IMG/VR virus record: IMGVR_UViG_3300038555_000005
Span: 1 to 52,926 of that record
Source of the DNA: a virus
Lineage: Duplodnaviria > Caudoviricetes
Strand: one strand, 5' to 3'
DNA length: 52,926 nt
Positions 4,181 through 39,320 of this stretch are shown piece after piece. The translations under genes were made by a program, and so were the position numbers. Numbering within the stretch: the first letter of the stretch is position 1; each line of letters opens with the position of its first letter. The notes under the pieces are model-generated. The model had not been told where the DNA came from and did not search any database. It was given only the letters and a program-made list of their open reading frames with translations.

Positions 4181-6124
4181 CTATGTGAGGGGGTACTGGA
4201 CGACCGTGGATGCCCAGGCACGTGGGGCTCCTGTGGCGTTCTGCAGACCGATCTGGCCCGCGTTGGGGTGCCCGACCGGGTAGATGCTCAGCCACCCCGT
4301 GAAGTCGTTCGTCAACGCGACCGGTACGCGGACGATGCCGAGCCCCGCGTCCGGACGCATCGCGGCGGGAAGAGCGGATGTGATGAAGCTCAGCCCGGTC
4401 GGGATGGACGCCCCGACGGACACCCGCAGCCACGCCGTCTTGCCGACGACCTTCACCGCAGTGGTGATGCCGTCGAGCGCCGTCGCGTATGCGGCCGACA
4501 TGGTGAGGTTCGTCCATGTGCCATCGAGAGCCGCGAGCTTCTTCGGTGTGACGAAGGTGGCGTCGTCCGTGCCAGTGTTCACCTGTGCTTGGGTGGCGAT
4601 CGCCGCCAGCCCTGTCCGTGTCTCTGTCGCCACACGCGCGGCGAGAGAGGCCGGCGTGACCGCGCGGGTGCGGATCAGGCCAAGCGCCGTCTCCGCATCG
4701 GTCGCCCCGGCGAGTAGCTGGAGGCCTTCGGCGTAGACGGTGCCAAGGACGTCGAGCCCGCCGCGCTCCCAGTACTTGCCGATGCCGACGCCCTGCGCCG
4801 CCCAGTGCATGTACACCTCGGATGTGGCGACGTCGGCGAGCGCGATCGCGGTGACGAACTTGTCTGCGACCTCGACGCGCACCTCGAAGGATGCGTTGAC
4901 GGGGTAGTTCGCGCCACCGGAGATCACGAAGGAGCTGCCGTAGGTGAGCGACCCGTGGTTGATGACGTTGCGTGCTGTCCACGCCGTCCCGCCACGAGGA
5001 CGGGTGAATGCACGGATCGTCATCGTGTTGCGTTGGGTGCCGTTGATGAGTGACTGCACCGCGGCGGCCAGGTCGACGCGCAGGCTGGTGCCGTTCTCAT
5101 CGAGCACGCCCGCTGCGGTGCAGCGCTTCACGGTCGCCGTGGTCACCAGGGGTGGCGCGTAGGCGAGGACGTTGATGTTCGCAGAGAACACACCCTTGCG
5201 GCCGCGCGAGTCGGTCGCCTCAGCGGTGACCTGTCGTGCACCCGCTGCGTTCAGTGCGATTGAGCCGCCGCTCGGAGAGGTCATGCCGTCGACGGAAAAC
5301 GAGCGCTGCGTGATCGTCGAACCATGCACGCCCTGAGCGTTCACGGTCGCGCGGATCGACGACAGCCCCTGCACGTACGCACCGACAACGCTCGAAACGG
5401 TGGCATTGTCGTCGGCCGCGGTGATGTTCGGGATCGTCGGAACAACTTCTGCGCCCGCGTGCAATGTGAACGCGGTGTCCCTGGTTCCGATGACGGTTGA
5501 GCCGTTTTTCGTCACCACGCGGATGAACCCGCTGCCGGAGGTGCCGTTCGGGATCTGTTCGAGCATCGACAGGGGCGGCGTCCATGAGACCGACGCGCCG
5601 ACAGCCGCGCCGATGGTGCCCGTGGCGGAGCCGAACTGCCAGGTGATGTCGTGCGTCCACGTATCGACTGCGCGGTTCGTCTGGACGGTAACGGCGGCTC
5701 CAGCGGTGAGGCTGGAGCCGCCTGTGAACGTCGCGACAGATGCGCGGGCGATCGATGGCAGTGCCATCACTGCATCGCCTTGCGTGTTCCCCAGGATCAA
5801 GTACCTGCCGACGACCGCCAAACCGATGCTCTTCGAGCCGTCTGCGTCGTGATCGATCTCGTAGTATCCCTGGCCGAGCAGCCACGGTCCCGCCCCGGTG
5901 AAGTCGAACTTCAGCCCAGTGGCACCGCCGCGCTTCGTACCGCCCGCCCAAAACTCCCATTCCGACGACGCGTCGTTGGAGAAGGACGGGGAGGTGCCGA
6001 GCTTGTCCACCCAAACCTGAAAGATCAGACCGGACTTGTTCGTGACCGTGTTCTGTGAATCGACCCACGTCTCCGCACGGAGCCGGAATGGCCGATTCGG
6101 GAAGCTGCTGCTGACGTTAGCCAA
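4181..6124 (-). CDS. Minor tail / receptor-binding protein (DUF859-like N-terminus, tail-fibre repeats)
   Basis: 647 aa beta-rich Thr/Gly/Ser protein; ATETRTGLAAIATQAQVNTGTDDATFVTPKKL fibre repeat; last tail gene. Confidence 0.8.
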   Translation of the reverse strand: MANVSSSFPNRPFRLRAETWVDSQNTVTNKSGLIFQVWVDKLGTSPSFSNDASSEWEFWAGGTKRGGATGLKFDFTGAGPWLLGQGYYEIDHDADGSKSIGLAVVGRYLILGNTQGDAVMALPSIARASVATFTGGSSLTAGAAVTVQTNRAVDTWTHDITWQFGSATGTIGAAVGASVSWTPPLSMLEQIPNGTSGSGFIRVVTKNGSTVIGTRDTAFTLHAGAEVVPTIPNITAADDNATVSSVVGAYVQGLSSIRATVNAQGVHGSTITQRSFSVDGMTSPSGGSIALNAAGARQVTAEATDSRGRKGVFSANINVLAYAPPLVTTATVKRCTAAGVLDENGTSLRVDLAAAVQSLINGTQRNTMTIRAFTRPRGGTAWTARNVINHGSLTYGSSFVISGGANYPVNASFEVRVEVADKFVTAIALADVATSEVYMHWAAQGVGIGKYWERGGLDVLGTVYAEGLQLLAGATDAETALGLIRTRAVTPASLAARVATETRTGLAAIATQAQVNTGTDDATFVTPKKLAALDGTWTNLTMSAAYATALDGITTAVKVVGKTAWLRVSVGASIPTGLSFITSALPAAMRPDAGLGIVRVPVALTNDFTGWLSIYPVGHPNAGQIGLQNATGAPRAWASTVVQYPLT

Positions 6125-24429: not shown

Positions 24430-24969
24430 ATGCAGCCCACTAAGCAGCACCGAGAGACGGCCTCTGACCTGGATCGGAAGTTCCGCAGGGGTGCGTACGT
24501 CGGGATACTCGTCAGCGAGAGCGATAAGGACGCGCACGCACTCTGGTATGGGCGTGTGCTCACCGCACTGACCATCACGGCCGCCGGCGAAGAGATCATC
24601 TGGGCGCAGATGCAGGTTCGGGATGAGGGCGGGGGCGAAGTGTTCTTCACTGTCCTCACCGCCCAGGCGGTGCTCCTTGGGCACGCCACCGGCGTCAAGG
24701 AGGGCACTCCGAAGATCGACGACGTACGAGCGATCGGTCGAAACGCCCTTGCCCTGGTCGAAGTGAAGGCCGATGTCGAGATCGACGGGAATGGCGCGTC
24801 CGCGCACGCTTGGCCCGGCAACGTCCAGGTCGTCGCCGAGTACCGCGTGCCGAAACCGCAGGGCAAGCAACTCGTCTTCTTCGGGGCCTACGAGACGCAG
24901 AGCGACCAGGAGAACGAATCTCCGGTGCTCGGCCTGCTGGCCGAGTTGCAGAAGGACCTGAACTCCTGA
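24430..24969 (+). CDS. Hypothetical protein (opposite-strand moron)
   Basis: 179 aa, AAAGGGGGG RBS, good codon bias. Confidence 0.7.
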   Translation: MQPTKQHRETASDLDRKFRRGAYVGILVSESDKDAHALWYGRVLTALTITAAGEEIIWAQMQVRDEGGGEVFFTVLTAQAVLLGHATGVKEGTPKIDDVRAIGRNALALVEVKADVEIDGNGASAHAWPGNVQVVAEYRVPKPQGKQLVFFGAYETQSDQENESPVLGLLAELQKDLNS

Positions 24970-24998
24970 GGCGGGTGGGACGGCGCTATTCTGAGCGC

Positions 24999-25403
24999 AT
25001 GCGCCGTCTCATCGTCCCCGCTGCTCTGATCGCTGTCCTCGCCGTTACCGGATGCTCGGCATCCTCGGACCCGGAGCCGACGCCGACGGAGAGCACCACG
25101 GCCACCGTCGAGATGGACACGCCCTCCCCGACGCCGACGATCGACGCCGCAGCGCTCGAGCAGGGCTTCCTCGACACGCTCCGTCAGGAGACGGGCCCGG
25201 ACCTGATCAGCTACACCGATGAGGGGCTGCTCGAAGTCGGGAAGTCCGTGTGCCAGTCGCTCAAGTCGGACATCGGTCCGGCGAGCATCGAGACGGCGCT
25301 CACTGACAGCGGCTTCACGAAGGACGCCGCCGTGAACGTCATCTCCGGCGCCGGCGTGCTGCTCTGCAGCGACCAGGCATCGAAGGTGCTCACGGGCTGG
25401 TAG
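24999..25403 (+). CDS. Lipoprotein (DUF732-like)
   Basis: MRRLIVPAALIAVLAVTG-C lipobox, Pro/Thr linker, GKSVCQSL...LLC Cys pair. Confidence 0.8.
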   Translation: MRRLIVPAALIAVLAVTGCSASSDPEPTPTESTTATVEMDTPSPTPTIDAAALEQGFLDTLRQETGPDLISYTDEGLLEVGKSVCQSLKSDIGPASIETALTDSGFTKDAAVNVISGAGVLLCSDQASKVLTGW

Positions 25404-25406
25404 CCA

Positions 25407-26741
25407 TCACGCGGCCAGGCTCCAGTTCAGCGCCGGCCGCCACATCGACTCGGTCGTCGCGATGACGTACCTGCCGCCGTCGAGCGAGTGGTCGTTGACC
25501 TTCACCGGCTCGTCGTGGCCCTTGAGTGCGGATTTTGTGTCCCAGCTGTAGCCGGGCGTCTCCGCGATCCATCCAGGGCACCGATCGGTTACGACGAGTT
25601 GCCGTTCGGCCATGAGCGACGCGACGGTGCTGATGCCGTACGAGACGTTGTTCAGACCGCCCGACGTCGGGATGTCGAGGAGGTTGAGCTCGCGCTGGAA
25701 GTGCAGTGCAGCGGGGTCCACGATGACGAACTCGGGGCGGAGCGCGGACTCGTACGGCAGGTGGTCCTTGTTCAGCCAATCGCGGAACAGCCCCGCCTGC
25801 TGCGACGGTGACAGGAACGCCGCCTCGCTCTTGCGAGAGTCGTGACGCCACTCGTCGATGAGCCACAGCCGGGAGCCGTAGCGGCCGTTGACCTGCTTCT
25901 CCTTCGAGAGGCCGAGGAGGAGACCGGTCGACGGGTTGTTCGTGCCGAAGTCGACGCCCACACCCAGGAGACGGTGCATCGACGGCAGCGACTCCCACGG
26001 CTTCACGTGCACGGCCGGATCCCACATGCCGTAGATCGCGCCGTCAGCGGACACCCACTCGCCGAGGATCTGCCGACGGAACCAGAGACCCGTGTACTGG
26101 GAACGGAGTCGCGCCTTCACCGCGTCCGACAGCGACGGGTTGTCGTCCATCATGAAGTGGTAGCGACGCCAGTCGGGCAGGTCGCGCATCCGGTCGATGA
26201 AGTCCGTCTTGAGCCAGTGCGCCGGCGAGTCCGGGTTCGTGGTCGCGAACAGCTTCGACTCGTCGAGCGACATGCGGTTCAGGACCTGCTTGAACGCGGT
26301 CTCCTCGATGACCGTGGCCTCGTCGACGTAGACGAGCAGCACCGTCATGCCTCGGATCTTGCCCTCAGCACGAGAGTCGTTGATACCGATGACCTGGACC
26401 TCGCGGCCGAAGATGTGAGCCGTCGGCGCGTTCTGCGTGTACTTCACGACGCCACGGAACGCGCGGAGGCCCTTCGACGTCTCGATGGTCTGGAAGAAGT
26501 TGCGGTAGATCGAGCCGAGGTTCTTCCCCACGATGAGGAGCTGGCCGTCGAGCTGCTGGTCACCGAGCGACGCGACCGCCATGAGGAACGCGAGCACCGA
26601 GACGTACGTCTTCCCGGCGCGGATCGAGCCCTCCCAGAGGTTGAACGTTGCGCCCTCCTGCAGGCACGCGTTCAGCGATCGGGCCTGGTTACGCCCCAGG
26701 CTCGCTGTCGCCTGGAACGTCGGCGGTGCCGGAGGAGTCAT
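25407..26741 (-). CDS. terL: Terminase large subunit (PBSX-like)
   Basis: Walker A EGSIRAGKT, Walker B VYVDEA, TTNPDSP, GVDFGTNN, NDHSLDGGRY nuclease motifs. Confidence 0.95.
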   Translation of the reverse strand: MTPPAPPTFQATASLGRNQARSLNACLQEGATFNLWEGSIRAGKTYVSVLAFLMAVASLGDQQLDGQLLIVGKNLGSIYRNFFQTIETSKGLRAFRGVVKYTQNAPTAHIFGREVQVIGINDSRAEGKIRGMTVLLVYVDEATVIEETAFKQVLNRMSLDESKLFATTNPDSPAHWLKTDFIDRMRDLPDWRRYHFMMDDNPSLSDAVKARLRSQYTGLWFRRQILGEWVSADGAIYGMWDPAVHVKPWESLPSMHRLLGVGVDFGTNNPSTGLLLGLSKEKQVNGRYGSRLWLIDEWRHDSRKSEAAFLSPSQQAGLFRDWLNKDHLPYESALRPEFVIVDPAALHFQRELNLLDIPTSGGLNNVSYGISTVASLMAERQLVVTDRCPGWIAETPGYSWDTKSALKGHDEPVKVNDHSLDGGRYVIATTESMWRPALNWSLAA

Positions 26742-27168
26742 CGGTCACCTGCCCGTACGAGTCATCAGTGCCGAACAGGCCCTTCAGGCCCGCGGCGAAG
26801 TCGAGCAGAGCACCCTTGACGTCGGCGGTCGGATCCTCCGGCTTGTGGTCGTACAGGCCGAGGAGGCGTGCGCGCTGGTCCATGATCTTCAGCGCACGGT
26901 CGACAGAGAAGTTGTCGCCGTTGCGGGCTGCTTCATAGAGGCCGGAGAACAGGTCGTCGAGTCGGGACAGTTCGAGTTCGAGGAGCTCGGAGGCGGACTC
27001 ACGGGTGATGTCGGCGATGCCCTGCTTCACGGCACGGTGTGCGCTGCCCTTGTTCGCGTAGCCGACCTCGGCGGCGATCTCGTCGAAGGACCATCCGGCT
27101 CGGCGGAGGTCGAGGGCTTGCTTGCGCTTCTCGGCGGCGGTTGCTCGGGAGTTGGTATCCGATGCCAT
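26689..27168 (-). CDS. terS: Terminase small subunit (HTH)
   Basis: ALDLRRAGWSFDEIAAEVGY HTH; RARLLGL motif; directly upstream of terL. Confidence 0.8.
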   Translation of the reverse strand: MASDTNSRATAAEKRKQALDLRRAGWSFDEIAAEVGYANKGSAHRAVKQGIADITRESASELLELELSRLDDLFSGLYEAARNGDNFSVDRALKIMDQRARLLGLYDHKPEDPTADVKGALLDFAAGLKGLFGTDDSYGQVTDDSSGTADVPGDSEPGA

Positions 27169-27240
27169 GTGGTTGCCTCTTTCGCTGCGCCCGCGCCTGG
27201 CGGGTCAGTGGGGGTGCCTGGCGCCTGGCCGGCATGACGG

Positions 27241-27275
27241 ACCCCCGGGGAGGCTGGTGCCGGTCCCCGGGGGTT
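27241..27275 (-). terminator. Stem-loop closing the PP-loop/peptide operon
   Basis: ACCCCCGGGGA...TCCCCGGGGGT 11 bp stem about 20 nt after the last peptide stop. Confidence 0.55.
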
Positions 27276-27293
27276 CGGTGTTGCAGTGCGGAA

Positions 27294-27449
27294 TTAGCTG
27301 CCGCTGGTTCGGCCTGCGCGCGAGGATGCTGCGCGGCGTGCGCCAGTGGTGCGGCGTCCGGAGAATCCGGTGCCGCCCATGATGTTGGCGAAGCCTTCAG
27401 CGCTGTTGATGCCGCCTCGGATGTAGGTGGCGATGGAGCGGTTGCGCAT
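27294..27449 (-). CDS. Arg-rich 51 aa peptide ending GRTSGS
   Basis: Hand translation MRNRSIATYIRGGINSAEGFANIMGGTGFSGRRTTGARRAASSRAGRTSGS; GAAGAGGAAA RBS; not in ORF track. Confidence 0.75.
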   Translation of the reverse strand: MRNRSIATYIRGGINSAEGFANIMGGTGFSGRRTTGARRAASSRAGRTSGS

Positions 27450-27467
27450 GGGGTTTCCTCTTCTGGG

Positions 27468-27575
27468 TCAGGAGCCGGACGTGCGTCCGCCGGAGGCGGA
27501 TGCGGCGCGTCGGGCCTGGGAGCGGCGGAACGCGGTGCGGATGCCTCGGGCGATGGAGCGGAAGCGGTCACGCAT
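27468..27575 (-). CDS. Arg-rich 35 aa peptide ending GRTSGS
   Basis: MRDRFRSIARGIRTAFRRSQARRAASASGGRTSGS; strong GAGGAGGTGA RBS. Confidence 0.75.
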   Translation of the reverse strand: MRDRFRSIARGIRTAFRRSQARRAASASGGRTSGS

Positions 27576-27598
27576 GGTGTCACCTCCTCTCGTCGGTC

Positions 27599-27973
27599 TC
27601 AGGTGAGGTCGACTCCGAGGGCGTCTGCGACGCTTCGGCCGTCGAGGTACTTGTCGCCGAGAGGGGCGAGGCCTGAGCGCTCGAGGAAGGCTTCCTTCTC
27701 CTCGCGGGTGGTGAAGCAGACGGCGACCCAGAATTCGGAGTCGGTAGCGCGCTTGAACCGGGCGCGCTCGGCGGTTGCGCGGTCGCGGTAGCCCTGCTCG
27801 AGTGCGGTGAACTCGGCGGCGGCGTCTTCGGCGAGGTTGTCGGTGTACTGGACCTCGGCGAGAGGGTCGGGCTCGGGGATGTGCTTGGGCCGACGACCGG
27901 AGAGGCCGCCGGAGGATCGGCCGGCACCGGGGCGCTTGCGGGGCCCGGTGAGGCCGGAGCTGTCGCGGGTCAT
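27599..27973 (-). CDS. Partner protein of PP-loop enzyme
   Basis: 124 aa, ATGA overlap with PP-loop gene; basic Gly/Ser N-tail, acidic helix, DSEFWVAVCF..REEKEAFL C-domain. Confidence 0.8.
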   Translation of the reverse strand: MTRDSSGLTGPRKRPGAGRSSGGLSGRRPKHIPEPDPLAEVQYTDNLAEDAAAEFTALEQGYRDRATAERARFKRATDSEFWVAVCFTTREEKEAFLERSGLAPLGDKYLDGRSVADALGVDLT

Positions 27974-28701
27974 GAGCGGTTCTCCATGCTGTCGCGGAAC
28001 AGTTCGAGGTCGGCGAGCGGGAACCAGTCGAGGATCCGCGCGAAGTCCTCGGGGAAGTGCTCGCTGATGGGCTTGAGGAAGCGGTAGTCGATGCCGTCGA
28101 AGGATCGGCCGAAGTGGTCGTAGTCGACTGGGAGGGCGATCCCGGCATCCGCGATGCGGTCGAGTACTTCACTCTTGAGCCAGTCGGCGACGGGGGACAC
28201 CTTGCGGTCTTTCGGCTTCATGATGCCGTGGCGGGTGAACGACGCGCGACGGACGATGCTGTCCGCTGCGCGGACGCCATCGGCCACCCAGGTGTCGGCG
28301 GGGAGGTCGAGATCCTTGCGGATGAGCGCCCACATGGTCGCGTAGTCGGGGAGGGGAAGGTTCGCCGCCTCGATGACCTCGCACCGCTCGGGAGGCTGGA
28401 ACACGAAGTTGTTGAGCCACCGGTAGAACGATGGGTGCGGGTATCGATGGATCGGCTTGCCGAGTGCCTGCTCGAGGTCGGTCAGGCCGCGCTCCACGAA
28501 GTCGAGGGTGCGGCCGGGCTCGCGGCCGGGGATGTAGTACAGGTGCGCGAGGACGGTTTCGATGCCCGCGTCCTGCAGCGCGAGTTCCGCGGCGATCGCA
28601 TCCTTCCCGCCGGAGAACGCGACGAGCACGGTGCGGTTCTCAGCGGCGAGGCGGTCGCGGATCTCGGCTGAGGTCGGCTGGCCCTTGATGATGGTCGGCA
28701 T
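27970..28701 (-). CDS. PP-loop adenine nucleotide alpha hydrolase (PAPS-reductase-like fold)
   Basis: VAFSGGKDA PP-loop, DGVRAADSIVR, SPVADW motifs. Confidence 0.85.
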   Translation of the reverse strand: MPTIIKGQPTSAEIRDRLAAENRTVLVAFSGGKDAIAAELALQDAGIETVLAHLYYIPGREPGRTLDFVERGLTDLEQALGKPIHRYPHPSFYRWLNNFVFQPPERCEVIEAANLPLPDYATMWALIRKDLDLPADTWVADGVRAADSIVRRASFTRHGIMKPKDRKVSPVADWLKSEVLDRIADAGIALPVDYDHFGRSFDGIDYRFLKPISEHFPEDFARILDWFPLADLELFRDSMENRS

Positions 28702-28908
28702 TCAGTACACGGCCTCTCGGGGATCGAGTGTCTCGACGTCGGTCATGCTGGGCCAAAGCGGGCCGCCGCCGGCGGCGGCCTTGCGATCGATCTCGGCTGC
28801 CTCGGCCTCCGCTTCAGCATTCGACCAGTATCGGTGAAGCTCGGTCGGCTCATGAGGTCCACCGCCACAGATGAAGCACGCGGTCGGCGCGCGGTGCGCG
28901 GCGGTCAT
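28702..28908 (-). CDS. Small hypothetical protein (CxxC...H...H)
   Basis: 68 aa, abuts PP-loop start. Confidence 0.6.
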   Translation of the reverse strand: MTAAHRAPTACFICGGGPHEPTELHRYWSNAEAEAEAAEIDRKAAAGGGPLWPSMTDVETLDPREAVY

Positions 28909-36982: not shown

Positions 36983-37590
36983 CAGCCGACCGCCCTCGTG
37001 CTGAGGAGGCGTGCGCGGGCGGTGTCGTCAGCGATGGCCTTGAGGCGGAAGTACTCGACCTCGCCATAGACCTCGATCATCATGACCATGGCCGTCGCGT
37101 AGCCGATCTCCTGTCGGCTTTCGCCTTCGAGGCGATACCAGCGGCCCTCGTTGGCGAAGTACACCGGCACGCGTCGTTCGTCGTCCACCCAGACGGGCAC
37201 CTTCACGCCCCACGCCTGTGCCTGAGCAGCCCACTCGGCGTTGGACTCGATCCAGCCATTGAGGATGGAGTCGAGCCAGAGCACGTTCGTCAGGCGGTGC
37301 TTGTTCTTGCGTCCGCCCATGCCGCCCTGACGGTGCTGCGGGACGATGCGGTCGCTCTGTGATCCACTCATGACGCAGGCGCGGCCGCGCAGCGCGTCAC
37401 GGCGGTCGAGGGCGAGGATGGTCATCGCGGGTACGCGGTCTGCCACGAGGGCTCCTTGGTGACATGCGCACCGATAGGTGGTGCGGCAGAAGTACGGGGT
37501 CTTGCAGCACGACGGGCGGCAGCGGCCGCGGGGATCGTCGTGCGGGAGGGTGTCGGGGGATGGGCGCGGGTGCGCGAACGCCACAGTCAC
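36982..37590 (-). CDS. Degenerate HNH-like protein (start may be 37425)
   Basis: RRD...CV..G...QHR..GMGG...L.N..WL...NG.IE pattern. Confidence 0.6.
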   Translation of the reverse strand: MTVAFAHPRPSPDTLPHDDPRGRCRPSCCKTPYFCRTTYRCACHQGALVADRVPAMTILALDRRDALRGRACVMSGSQSDRIVPQHRQGGMGGRKNKHRLTNVLWLDSILNGWIESNAEWAAQAQAWGVKVPVWVDDERRVPVYFANEGRWYRLEGESRQEIGYATAMVMMIEVYGEVEYFRLKAIADDTARARLLSTRAVG

Positions 37591-39320
37591 GCGACGACTC
37601 CGAGAGCCTCGTTGACGTCGTCGCCGATCCAGTGGGCTACGTTCACCGCGACGGCGTTGCCAGCGCCCTGCGTCGTCTCGCTCTTGTTCGCCGCCGACGT
37701 GTCGTACTCGTCCCAGAACCGCTGCGCGCGCAGGTGCTCCTTGGGGCCGAGCATCCGGAATCGGACGTCGTCGAGATCGAACGGCAGGTCCCCCTCGTAC
37801 ATCGACTTCGGTCGCGTCCGCTCGGGCACGACGAGGGAGACGTTCGGGCGCGCGACCATGCTGGGCAACGGGTCGCCGACGCTCTTGTTCATGTGCTCGA
37901 TGCGCGCGTAGTCCAGCCCGCCATGATGCTTCGACACGAAGGCGCCCGGCGGAACGGTCAGCCCGTGGTGGCTTCCGCCGGCAGTGACGGCCGACAGGGC
38001 GGTGTCATCGAGGCCCCGGACGGATCCAGTACCGTACAGCTCGGCGATGTACGGCGGCACGACGAGGTTGTGGTGCGCGCCTCCCGCGGTGATCGCGCCC
38101 AGGGCCGTCGCAGCGGGGTCGCTGTTCCGACGCTCAGACCCGGCTTGCTCGCCGTACTGATGCGAGACGAATGGCGGGAACGCCAGCCCATCACCGATCT
38201 TCGTGGAGCGCGTGGGTAGCGGCCCGGCGGCGAGCTCACGAGCGCGAGCGTCGCCGTCGTGATTCACGGCGAGCATGTACGGCGGGACCGCGACGGCGTC
38301 GCCAGTTCCGCCCGCCTGGCGCGCCATGAGCGGTGCGAGGGAGTCCCACGCTCGGTAGTACGAGTCCGGCTCGCCGAAGCGCGGGTGCCTCGGGTTCGCG
38401 GCATCCCAGGTCTGGCCGGAGTTCGCGACCACCGCAGGACGGGCGAACATCCTCAGCCCCACCTCGATGCGACGGAGCGTCGCCGCGCTCAGCTTCCGCA
38501 TTCCCAGCGACGGACGGTCGCCGAGTCGAATGCCGAGGTCGGACCAGTCGATGACGGCCGCCGCCGGGAGGACGAATGGCTCGACGACCTGCAGCGCGTG
38601 CGTGCCTGAGTCGCAGACGTACACGTACTGCGATCCGTACTTCCCGAATCGGGGCGCGCCTTCCGGTGCCGGCTTCTTCCAGTGCTGGCGTGTCAACACG
38701 ACGGAGTCGCACTGCGCGCACCAGCCCGGCGGCGACGGTTCGAGGCGCGGCTGCGGCACCCCCTTCCGCGTGAGCGCGATGTAGATCCGGTCCCGCCACT
38801 GACCTGCTGGCGCGTTCGTATCCGAGTAGATGTGCGCCGCGTTGACGTTGACGATCTTCCACCGGTAACCGAGCGACTCCCACATGCGCAGCCACGGCTC
38901 GAACAGGGGCCAGGATGCGACCTCGACGACGTTCTCGATCAGGATCACGTCGAAGTTGCGGGCTTCCGCGGCACGCAGCGGGTCGTACATCGTCGCCCGT
39001 GACCGCACACCCGCCTCCGCGGGGAGAGGATCGTCGCCGAAGAGCGTCGGGCCCGTCACCGTCACCCGCTTGCGGCCGCCGGCAGGGGAATGCCACGTGC
39101 ATTCAGGGGACGCCCACAGCACCGGCGCATAGGGCAGGCGGCGCATGTCGTACCCGGACAGGTCGCCCTGGACATGATCGGCGTCACGGTGGTTCGCCGA
39201 GTGCACCTGGATCGCCTTGTCCCAGTGGTTGTACGCCGAGACGAGCGTGAACCCCGCCTCCACGAGGCCGCTGCTGGCACCGCCGAATCCGGCGAAGAAG
39301 TCGAGAAATGGCAGGCTCAC
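37587..39320 (-). CDS. DNA (cytosine-5) methyltransferase
   Basis: FAGFGG motif I, SPEC motif IV, ENV motif VI, Q.R.R motif VIII, GNAV motif X. Confidence 0.93.
   Translation of the reverse strand: MSLPFLDFFAGFGGASSGLVEAGFTLVSAYNHWDKAIQVHSANHRDADHVQGDLSGYDMRRLPYAPVLWASPECTWHSPAGGRKRVTVTGPTLFGDDPLPAEAGVRSRATMYDPLRAAEARNFDVILIENVVEVASWPLFEPWLRMWESLGYRWKIVNVNAAHIYSDTNAPAGQWRDRIYIALTRKGVPQPRLEPSPPGWCAQCDSVVLTRQHWKKPAPEGAPRFGKYGSQYVYVCDSGTHALQVVEPFVLPAAAVIDWSDLGIRLGDRPSLGMRKLSAATLRRIEVGLRMFARPAVVANSGQTWDAANPRHPRFGEPDSYYRAWDSLAPLMARQAGGTGDAVAVPPYMLAVNHDGDARARELAAGPLPTRSTKIGDGLAFPPFVSHQYGEQAGSERRNSDPAATALGAITAGGAHHNLVVPPYIAELYGTGSVRGLDDTALSAVTAGGSHHGLTVPPGAFVSKHHGGLDYARIEHMNKSVGDPLPSMVARPNVSLVVPERTRPKSMYEGDLPFDLDDVRFRMLGPKEHLRAQRFWDEYDTSAANKSETTQGAGNAVAVNVAHWIGDDVNEALGVVA

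Follow-up and report, generated by a model that had tools for sequence, protein, structure and literature searches.

What does a phage do with an ATP-pyrophosphatase-like enzyme and two arginine-rich peptides that share their last six residues, encoded side by side just ahead of its packaging genes? The question is raised by positions 27,241 to 28,701 of a 52,926-nt stretch of Caudoviricetes DNA (IMG/VR record IMGVR_UViG_3300038555_000005, positions 1 to 52,926; hereafter the window), a high-GC (67%) provirus record in which the whole module lies on the minus strand. The module opens with a 243-residue PP-loop ATP pyrophosphatase resembling 3'-phosphoadenosine 5'-phosphosulphate (PAPS) reductases (27970-28701), recognised by its match to phrog_2302, its predicted fold, and its PP-loop. 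A partner protein of 124 residues follows (27599-27973), its start overlapping the enzyme's stop codon in the tetranucleotide ATGA, and then come two small open reading frames (ORFs), pep1 and pep2. The former (27468-27575) encodes 35 residues, ten of them Arg (charge about +8.5), behind the Shine-Dalgarno (SD) sequence GGAGG with a 7-nt spacer; the latter (27294-27449) encodes 51 residues, nine of them Arg (charge about +7.5), behind GAGGA with a 6-nt spacer. The peptides have in common the motifs MRxR, SIA, and ARRAAS, and the C-terminus GRTSGS followed directly by the stop codon. The tail codons of pep1, picked out by the conservation of RTSGS, occupy 27471-27488; those of pep2 (27297-27314) specify the same residues and differ at four of the six positions. 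An initial annotation, made from the letters of the window alone, had described the SGGKDA enzyme coupled to its partner, the two peptides with their ribosome-binding sites and shared motifs in differing codons, and a hairpin behind them, all of which are present as described; it went on to propose that the enzyme activates or modifies the peptide C-terminus. Comparison of related loci supports the view that, across phyla, PP-loop enzyme and partner are constantly accompanied by such peptides, in which the conserved element is the C-terminal tail. Together, the enzyme, partner, and peptides suggest an undescribed peptide-tagging or DNA-protection system.

Related loci were gathered through the enzyme alone and number 118 (900,692 nt): 38 viral contigs, whose enzymes are 52-92% identical to that of the window, and 80 genome loci, the best 80 of 101 relatives. 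Micrococcales, Coriobacteriia, Pseudonocardiales, and Actinomadura contributed genome loci, and so did Kingella, Eikenella, Burkholderiaceae, Rhodoferax, a Myxococcota metagenome-assembled genome, and Pedosphaera. Tail-bearing basic ORFs lie beside the enzyme in at least 107 of the 118 loci, with Actinomycetota, β- and γ-Proteobacteria, and Verrucomicrobiota among the taxa; the initial annotation had named this, basic ORFs with a Gly/Ser end in homologous neighbourhoods, as a check of its proposal. An automated census found the strict tail in 44 loci, a GRSSY ending in 52 (near-identical Collinsella prophages, which therefore are not independent observations), and other SG-rich variants in 11, and left 11 unclassified. 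Inspection by eye found a candidate in eight of the latter (L010, L011, L013, L014, L053, L058, L098, and L129); one of the other three is truncated (L030), and two hold nothing convincing (L057 and L096). In nearly all loci the small basic ORFs with this type of ending come after the partner gene; in L013 and L014 the peptide stands between enzyme and partner, and in L119, L123, and L129 upstream of the enzyme. On the gene strand of the 118 loci the strict tail motif is found 64 times, on the opposite strand twice; 58 of the 64 gene-strand occurrences sit 300-2200 nt past the enzyme gene. Translation of the 52.9-kb window in six frames yields only two ORFs that end in [TSAMN]SG[ST]-stop, namely pep1 and pep2.

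The manner in which these small genes have changed confirms, on comparative grounds, that pep1 and pep2 are genuine genes under selection at the protein level, as the initial annotation had argued from the differing tail codons. RTSGS is retained in 20 of 22 peptides with its Ser codons alternating between TCN and AGC, and synonymous changes occur in the tail codons. The ratio of nonsynonymous to synonymous substitution rates (dN/dS) is 0.08-0.27 for the closest peptide pairs (0.08-0.26 for pep1, 0.23-0.27 for pep2) and 0.6-1.3 for distant pep2 pairs, from which it follows that the middle of the peptide evolves fast. Orthologues of pep1 (91-94% identity) are found in L003 and L007, and those of pep2 in L001-L008. 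An SD-like motif precedes an in-frame start in 60 of 62 distinct ORFs, versus 15.7% for any start-like triplet, a comparison in which multiple candidate starts per ORF raise the chance expectation. Pasteurella phage Pm86 has low GC and nevertheless encodes, between partner and terS, two peptides that are unannotated and end in ARSSGS and SRSSGS; random open frames in GC-rich DNA therefore are not the explanation. A plot of GC content at third codon positions by frame was uninformative, because peptides so rich in Arg, Gly, and Ala carry a high GC at codon position 2. The peptides are 27-51 residues long with charges of +3.5 to +9.5; 23 of 27 lack Asp and Glu altogether, and their tails follow the consensus ...RRAAS-xxx-G-R-T/S-S-G-S/T, those of the window clade ending in Ser, Thr, or Tyr. 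Such genes mostly have escaped naming: Gordonia phage Aleemily and Cutibacterium phage CA1NRNZ each list a small basic ORF as hypothetical, the small ORFs are unannotated in Pm86 and in Bifidobacterium phage BigBern1, and a search of 5.8 billion proteins with a peptide profile returned 23 matches, all of them nameless or 'hypothetical'. Two close relatives of the window locus carry a third tail-bearing ORF after pep2 (L002 5485-5760 and L007 5913-6206; MAIGD..., 91-97 residues, ending ASRTSGS) that is absent from the window.

The peptides were also sought with the peptides themselves as queries. A profile built from 27 of them gave exactly one match per genome, at the locus, in each of three genomes (2-12.8 Mb). 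Among 151 genomes of one order, it matched two and the partner profile four; both peptide matches adjoin the partner, and the remaining two partner-positive genomes carry, directly 3' of the partner, a divergent Lys/Arg-rich peptide (MPPRKRQ...) that ends SSGSS or SASGALDH. The peptide profile matched none of the 147 partner-negative genomes of that order. Scans of viral contigs seeded with the peptides, of limited sensitivity, returned no contig without the enzyme. A search of viral contigs for the codon pattern of the tail, likewise limited in sensitivity, gave nine matches, three of which are known enzyme loci; the six new stretches were rejected as tails and taken as chance matches, with Thr or Cys encoded where Ser is expected.

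A distant clade of loci, found in Lactobacillus phages such as LR1 and JNU_P7, bears directly on what the tail is for. Here the enzyme is 27-29% identical to that of the window, and it is followed by one to five unrelated proteins of about 100-170 residues that have the common end K/L-G-S-T-G-S-x-G-G. In 14 loci (80 kb) GSTGSxGG ends occur 21 times on the gene strand and never on the other, two of the 21 being short fragments. One locus, L153, holds at least four tail-bearing ORFs whose Gly and Ser codons vary synonymously. Three further ORFs of about 100-115 residues at the same locus (ends at 5738, 6090, and 6413), 1.5-2.8 kb past the enzyme, finish in STGHSGG or SSGHSGG, which points to an expanded family of tail-bearing proteins. 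None of eight tail-bearing proteins of this clade matched PHROG. Varied heads with one tail, and a type of tail that switches with the clade of the enzyme, constitute the strongest argument that the enzyme recognises the tail.

What kind of enzyme this may be was approached through its sequence and its modelled fold. The window enzyme matches phrog_2302 ('PAPS reductase') with E 3.5e-29 and a second PHROG 'PAPS reductase' family with 3.9e-11; the SspD model of PADLOC matches it weakly (E 6.7e-5). It has no Pfam match at E<0.1, the QueC family included, PF01507 matches two of 11 relatives (best E 3e-4), and NCBIfam gives sub-threshold PP-loop matches only. The PP-loop S-G-G-K-D-A comprises residues 30-35 (28597-28614; the codons of F-S-G-G-K-D-A span 28597-28617). 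Across the 11 relatives (52-92% identity) S30, G32, K33, and D34 are invariant and position 31 varies between G, C, T, L, and R. No Cys is invariant anywhere in that alignment; the enzyme of L012 lacks Cys altogether, and the single Cys of the window enzyme is internal. An AlphaFold2 model (predicted local distance difference test, 84) shows the PP-loop in a Rossmann-like alpha/beta nucleotide-binding fold. Foldseek returned 86 PDB matches at E<=1e-3, PP-loop enzymes throughout those listed, and 26 chains reached Z>=8 in the VIA structural comparison. The top nine VIA rows (Z 10.4-11.7, aligning 156-183 residues) are the PAPS domain of human FAD synthase, PAPS and adenosine 5'-phosphosulphate (APS) reductases, CysD, and Fad1; lower scores were obtained by Cap9 (Z 8.7), QueC (Z 8.1), and AsnB and its relatives (Z 5.2-6.9). 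Within the PP-loop superfamily the modelled fold comes nearest to the PAPS-reductase branch, and the intact S-x-G-K-D loop points, by family resemblance, to ATP pyrophosphatase or adenylyl-transfer chemistry. The enzyme is acidic (isoelectric point 5.2-7.0), as mostly is the partner. CysH carries a conserved catalytic Cys in a C-terminal motif. The family has no invariant Cys, and given the lack of that catalytic residue we rejected the assignment as a sulphate-assimilation PAPS/APS reductase (CysH). The assignment as a DndC-type sulphur inserter was rejected in the same way: DndC has cysteines for a 4Fe-4S cluster and for sulphur relay (PMC10853773), the absence of both kinds here argues that the enzyme is not of this type, and its SspD match reaches only E 6.7e-5. 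Relatives are scarce among cultured phage records, a tblastn search of a phage collection finding only 11.

The partner follows the enzyme directly in all 38 viral loci and in 79 of the 80 genome loci. Its N-terminal 23 or so residues are predicted to be disordered, and the remainder is modelled as a long helix and a short helical region; the core carries the motif ATDSEYWFAVCF..R..KEAFL...GDKYLDG. In seven loci (L015, L031, L058, L104, L105, L112, and L117) this core is duplicated in tandem within one protein, which hints at action as a dimer or pseudo-dimer. Two metagenomic proteins (P0026 and P0027) consist of the enzyme fused to two copies of the partner core, and lend support to a physical association of enzyme and partner. 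These two proteins end Arg-rich (...RRSTERTSRG and ...RRSIERTSRA...), loosely like the peptides; the peptide may be fused too, or the ends may be a read-through artefact. The family is large, with 1397 representatives (clusters at 50% identity) at E<=1e-3 and 953 at E<=1e-10, and the Atlas clusters that match it are virus-dominated and unnamed. The partner has no Pfam family and no Foldseek match in PDB or BFVD; its best VIA score, Z 4.4, is limited to the long helix. A weak match to the ParB-like family phrog_9353 (E 0.014, profile positions 182-238) recurs with hhalign, which aligns the partner core with the last 60 or so residues of phrog_9353 proteins (E 5e-4 and 6.6e-4, probability 31% and 27%), and a Pfam search found no ParB domain in the window partner. 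The partner probably corresponds to the C-terminal domain of a ParB-like companion of phage PAPS-reductase-like enzymes, a link that is insecure.

From these elements we tentatively put forward a mechanism, the likeliest of the readings considered though possible rather than probable, in which the tail is both handle and substrate of an ATP-dependent adenylating enzyme, the chemistry being inferred. The module, self-contained and set at the head of the packaging operon, would consist of a PP-loop ATP pyrophosphatase, a small partner, mostly acidic, and between one and three strongly basic micro-proteins that vary in their heads and share a flexible C-terminal tail. The complex of enzyme and partner would bind the tail and adenylate it at the expense of ATP, and the activated tail would next undergo amidation or be ligated to an acceptor. 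Simplest as a target would be the terminal carboxylate, the sole carboxyl group in most of the peptides. The Arg-rich head would act on phage DNA around packaging, through charge neutralisation or by shielding it from host nucleases. The initial proposal that the enzyme acts on the peptide C-terminus thus keeps its general part, a conserved tail that recurs with the enzyme, and loses some of its strict form, in which the terminal carboxylate reacts.

Several findings weigh against the mechanism, next to the redundancy of the Collinsella prophages in the census. Between one and nine extra residues follow the SG motif in several loci (V, A, PVN, PQQR, and QVKR), and two cultured phages append IHR and SKRRK to it; the terminal carboxylate of the last Ser therefore is not a universal reaction site unless the tail is trimmed. 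In the Lactobacillus-phage clade, four of the 14 loci lack a tail: L155 is cut off just past the enzyme, and L156-L158 combine the enzyme with a ParB-like gene and have no tail-bearing ORF within 3 kb. The known members of the PAPS-reductase branch (CysD, FMN adenylyltransferase, and CysH) adenylate sulphate- or phosphate-type acceptors or bind sulphonucleotides; to our knowledge none adenylates a peptide carboxylate. A co-fold of the enzyme, the partner core, and pep1, run without controls, scored 0.03, which speaks neither for nor against binding.

A bolder version, to which we give little credence, has the enzyme covalently join the hydroxyl-ending tails (Ser, Thr, or Tyr last) of the Arg-rich peptides to phage DNA. 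Attachment might take place at the ends that terminase makes, or at backbone phosphates activated as DndC/SspD-type enzymes are believed to activate DNA. If true, phage genomes would be capped with peptide or peptidylated, would have their charge neutralised, and would withstand host exonucleases and restriction. In a sister version the tail carboxylate may carry sulphur, in the manner of TtuB, for a cysteine-free phosphorothioation.

Several known systems resemble parts of the proposed mechanism. Small ribosomal peptides stand beside ATP-dependent adenylating enzymes in the MccB-MccA pair and with the lasso cyclases, and the reaction there takes place at the conserved end of the peptide. MccB, however, is E1-like, and the cyclases are asparagine-synthetase-like (AsnB Z 5.2-6.9 for the window enzyme, versus 11.7 for the PAPS branch); the likeness to ribosomally synthesized and post-translationally modified peptides that the initial annotation had drawn accordingly holds only loosely, the enzyme lying in the PAPS-reductase branch. 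The context in the window, moreover, is phage packaging, and the module, whose neighbourhood is annotated in part, showed no gene for a protease, exporter, or immunity function. In TtuA-TtuB and the ThiS-MoaD-type carriers a PP-loop enzyme cooperates with a small protein that inserts a flexible C-terminus of small residues into an active site; the tails of the Lactobacillus clade end in GG as well. Unlike ThiS-MoaD carriers, the peptides (27-51 residues) are too short for a beta-grasp fold, the tails of the window clade end in S, T, or Y, and no E1-like gene was noticed with the window module. Cap9 of type IV CBASS (cyclic-oligonucleotide-based antiphage signalling system) and QatC of QatABCD are QueC-family PP-loop enzymes described as acting on flexible Gly-containing termini of partner proteins. 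There, too, a PP-loop enzyme has a dedicated small partner whose flexible Gly-containing tail is essential; the differences are the QueC branch, the N-terminal position of the tails, the conjugation of a 7-deazaguanine carboxylate, and the role in host defence.

The main rival makes DNA the substrate: the enzyme would activate a position on DNA with ATP, as DndC and SspD are believed to do, and the peptide would be a DNA-targeting adaptor whose tail docks in the complex, the outcome being a modification that protects phage DNA against host restriction. The Arg-rich head of the peptide would hold the acidic complex of enzyme and partner on DNA. We consider it unlikely, yet several observations fit: the opposition between acidic enzyme and partner and strongly basic peptides, the packaging genes next door, a possible origin of the partner in a ParB-like protein that binds or cuts DNA, and the weak similarity of the enzyme to SspD. 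With DndC/SspD the window enzyme shares the PAPS-reductase-like branch, an S-G-G-K-D-S-type PP-loop, and a setting of phage-host conflict over DNA; it differs in that its family is without the invariant Cys required for a Fe-S cluster or a persulfide, and that tail-bearing peptides are present instead. No desulfurase, DndD/E, or SspB/C was found among the recurrent neighbour families annotated, the neighbours being annotated in part, and neither a cysteine desulfurase nor any other donor of a nucleophile was seen in the module. A precedent comes from Vibrio phages, in which a fusion of a PAPS domain with Dam, together with a neighbouring gene of unknown function, allowed escape from Dnd restriction (preprint 10.1101/2021.05.05.442762). 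That case resembles ours in a phage-encoded PAPS-reductase-like domain with a small neighbour of unknown function and an experimentally supported anti-restriction role; it differs in the fusion to a methylase and in that no tail-bearing peptide is reported there, supplements aside. Our tblastn search of the phage collection with the window enzyme found no Vibrio phage.

Also close to the module are phage pairs of a ParB-like and a PAPS-reductase protein (IbrB/IbrA type; the phrog_424 fusions; phrog_9353), in which a like enzyme stands just 5' of terS and with whose phrog_9353 members, over their last 60 or so residues, the window partner weakly aligns. The ParB-like neighbour in the Lactobacillus clade is a full-length member of phrog_9353 (E 1.5e-84). 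The window partner, in contrast, lacks the N-terminal ParB domain, and tail-bearing proteins are not described with such pairs in the literature searched. Against the adaptor reading, the connection to ParB is weak (hhalign E 5e-4 to 7e-4, probability 27-31%), and an adaptor leaves unexplained why up to five unrelated proteins in the Lactobacillus clade should bear one tail.

The setting of the module invites another reading, that the peptides have a function of their own, apart from the enzyme, as packaged counter-ions or internal proteins. Their tail would dock to the capsid interior, the portal, or the terminase, comparable to a cargo-loading peptide, and enzyme and partner would be mere neighbours. 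In the window the module lies directly ahead of terS (26689-27168, minus strand), which matches phrog_645 (E 1.7e-29; PHROGs label 'Rnase E') and is called terS on the basis of its N-terminal helix-turn-helix-like match and its position immediately 5' of terL (25407-26741, minus strand; Terminase_6N, E 4e-17; phrog_2, E 5e-44). The placement upstream of terS that the initial annotation pointed out holds more widely: a same-strand terminase gene occurs in the flank of 108 of the 118 loci, with the module 5' of terS. The terS genes concerned are of the window type, Terminase_4, and Terminase_7, and those of non-actinobacterial loci and of Pm86 belong to phrog_1889, phrog_57, and phrog_4102; this diversity indicates a portable module whose link is with the head of the packaging operon rather than with any single terminase. 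A place kept across terS families agrees with counter-ions, as do the protamine-like composition (no acidic residue in 23 of the 27 peptides) and the combination of variable heads with a constant tail, which is typical of targeting tags. The type of tail, however, tracks the clade of the enzyme and not the family of terS, and in three loci the peptide lies 0.7-4 kb upstream of the enzyme, away from terS. The 147 partner-negative genomes, moreover, gave no profile match, and the peptide and codon-pattern scans, with their limited sensitivity, led to enzyme-bearing contigs only. We judge this reading quite unlikely.

Behind the last peptide gene of the window stands a GC-rich stem-loop without a U-tract (about 27238-27277, minus strand), found by folding; the 136-nt spacer 3' of pep2, folded whole, reaches -60.1 kcal/mol (z = -2.0). 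A strong hairpin in this position was present in 11 of 15 related loci examined (L001-L009, L050, and L100), and among these 15 it was missing from those of Pasteurella and Eikenella, which have low GC. Stem sequences vary from locus to locus, a pattern suggestive of a conserved structure, be it a terminator, a processing site, or a regulatory element 5' of terS; a scan for consensus promoters and terminators gave no match. One may suppose that the peptides are RNA-binding regulators of late transcription or translation that act on this hairpin, a reading encouraged by its recurrence and by their N-terminal Arg-rich amphipathic segment, which presumably resembles an arginine-rich motif. It appears very improbable to us: the cross-phylum invariance of a non-basic Gly/Ser tail and the constant link with enzyme and partner go unexplained, the low-GC loci do without a strong hairpin, and tail-bearing proteins of 91-170 residues do not fit. 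Hardly credible, lastly, is the reading in which the enzyme is an auxiliary PAPS reductase of metabolism, supplying the sulphur assimilation of the host, and the small ORFs are irrelevant. This reading follows the annotation in public records and a preprint on Bifidobacterium prophages (10.64898/2026.02.18.706556), and it is contradicted by the lack of an invariant Cys in the family (the Cys of the window enzyme being internal), by a PP-loop of the ATP-pyrophosphatase type (S-x-G-K-D), and by constant companions that are a partner and tail-bearing peptides and not sulphur genes.

A few other genes in the window deserve mention. Upstream of the enzyme, an ORF of 68 residues (28702-28908, minus strand) is coupled to the enzyme start (TGAATG) and has a C-x-x-C-like stretch; it was rejected as a part of the module because none of the 118 related loci holds a relative. 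Two plus-strand ORFs (24430-25403) lie between terL and the portal gene, antisense to the structural genes, and one of them has a lipoprotein-like signal (MRRLIVPAALIAVLAVTGCSAS...) and is a possible moron. An ORF of 577 residues (37587-39320, minus strand) starts ...FLDFFAGFGGASSGL, which we take to resemble motif I of cytosine-5 DNA methyltransferases; the prophage might thus encode a separate DNA-modification gene there.

PAPS-reductase-like genes of phages, and their pairing with ParB-like genes, already are known as annotations. For the partner family, the tail-bearing micro-proteins, and their link to the enzyme we found no description in the literature searched, supplementary files aside. 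Phage 'PAPS reductase' genes are common and usually are read as auxiliary genes of sulphur metabolism or left hypothetical; a large branch of them now appears without the reductase cysteine, travelling with a partner and with mostly unannotated micro-proteins that are defined by their tails. Dozens of overlooked small genes thereby are flagged for phage annotation, and an opaque annotation becomes a testable system of three components, with substrates that can be synthesised and with the Gordonia phages as cultured, non-pathogenic models. If the tail is the substrate of the enzyme, phages would encode a chemistry of protein or peptide tagging carried out by a PP-loop enzyme; if DNA is the acceptor, this would be a new class of DNA modification with relevance to anti-restriction and packaging. 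Should the tail prove to be an enzyme substrate or a DNA adduct, the system would be categorically new.

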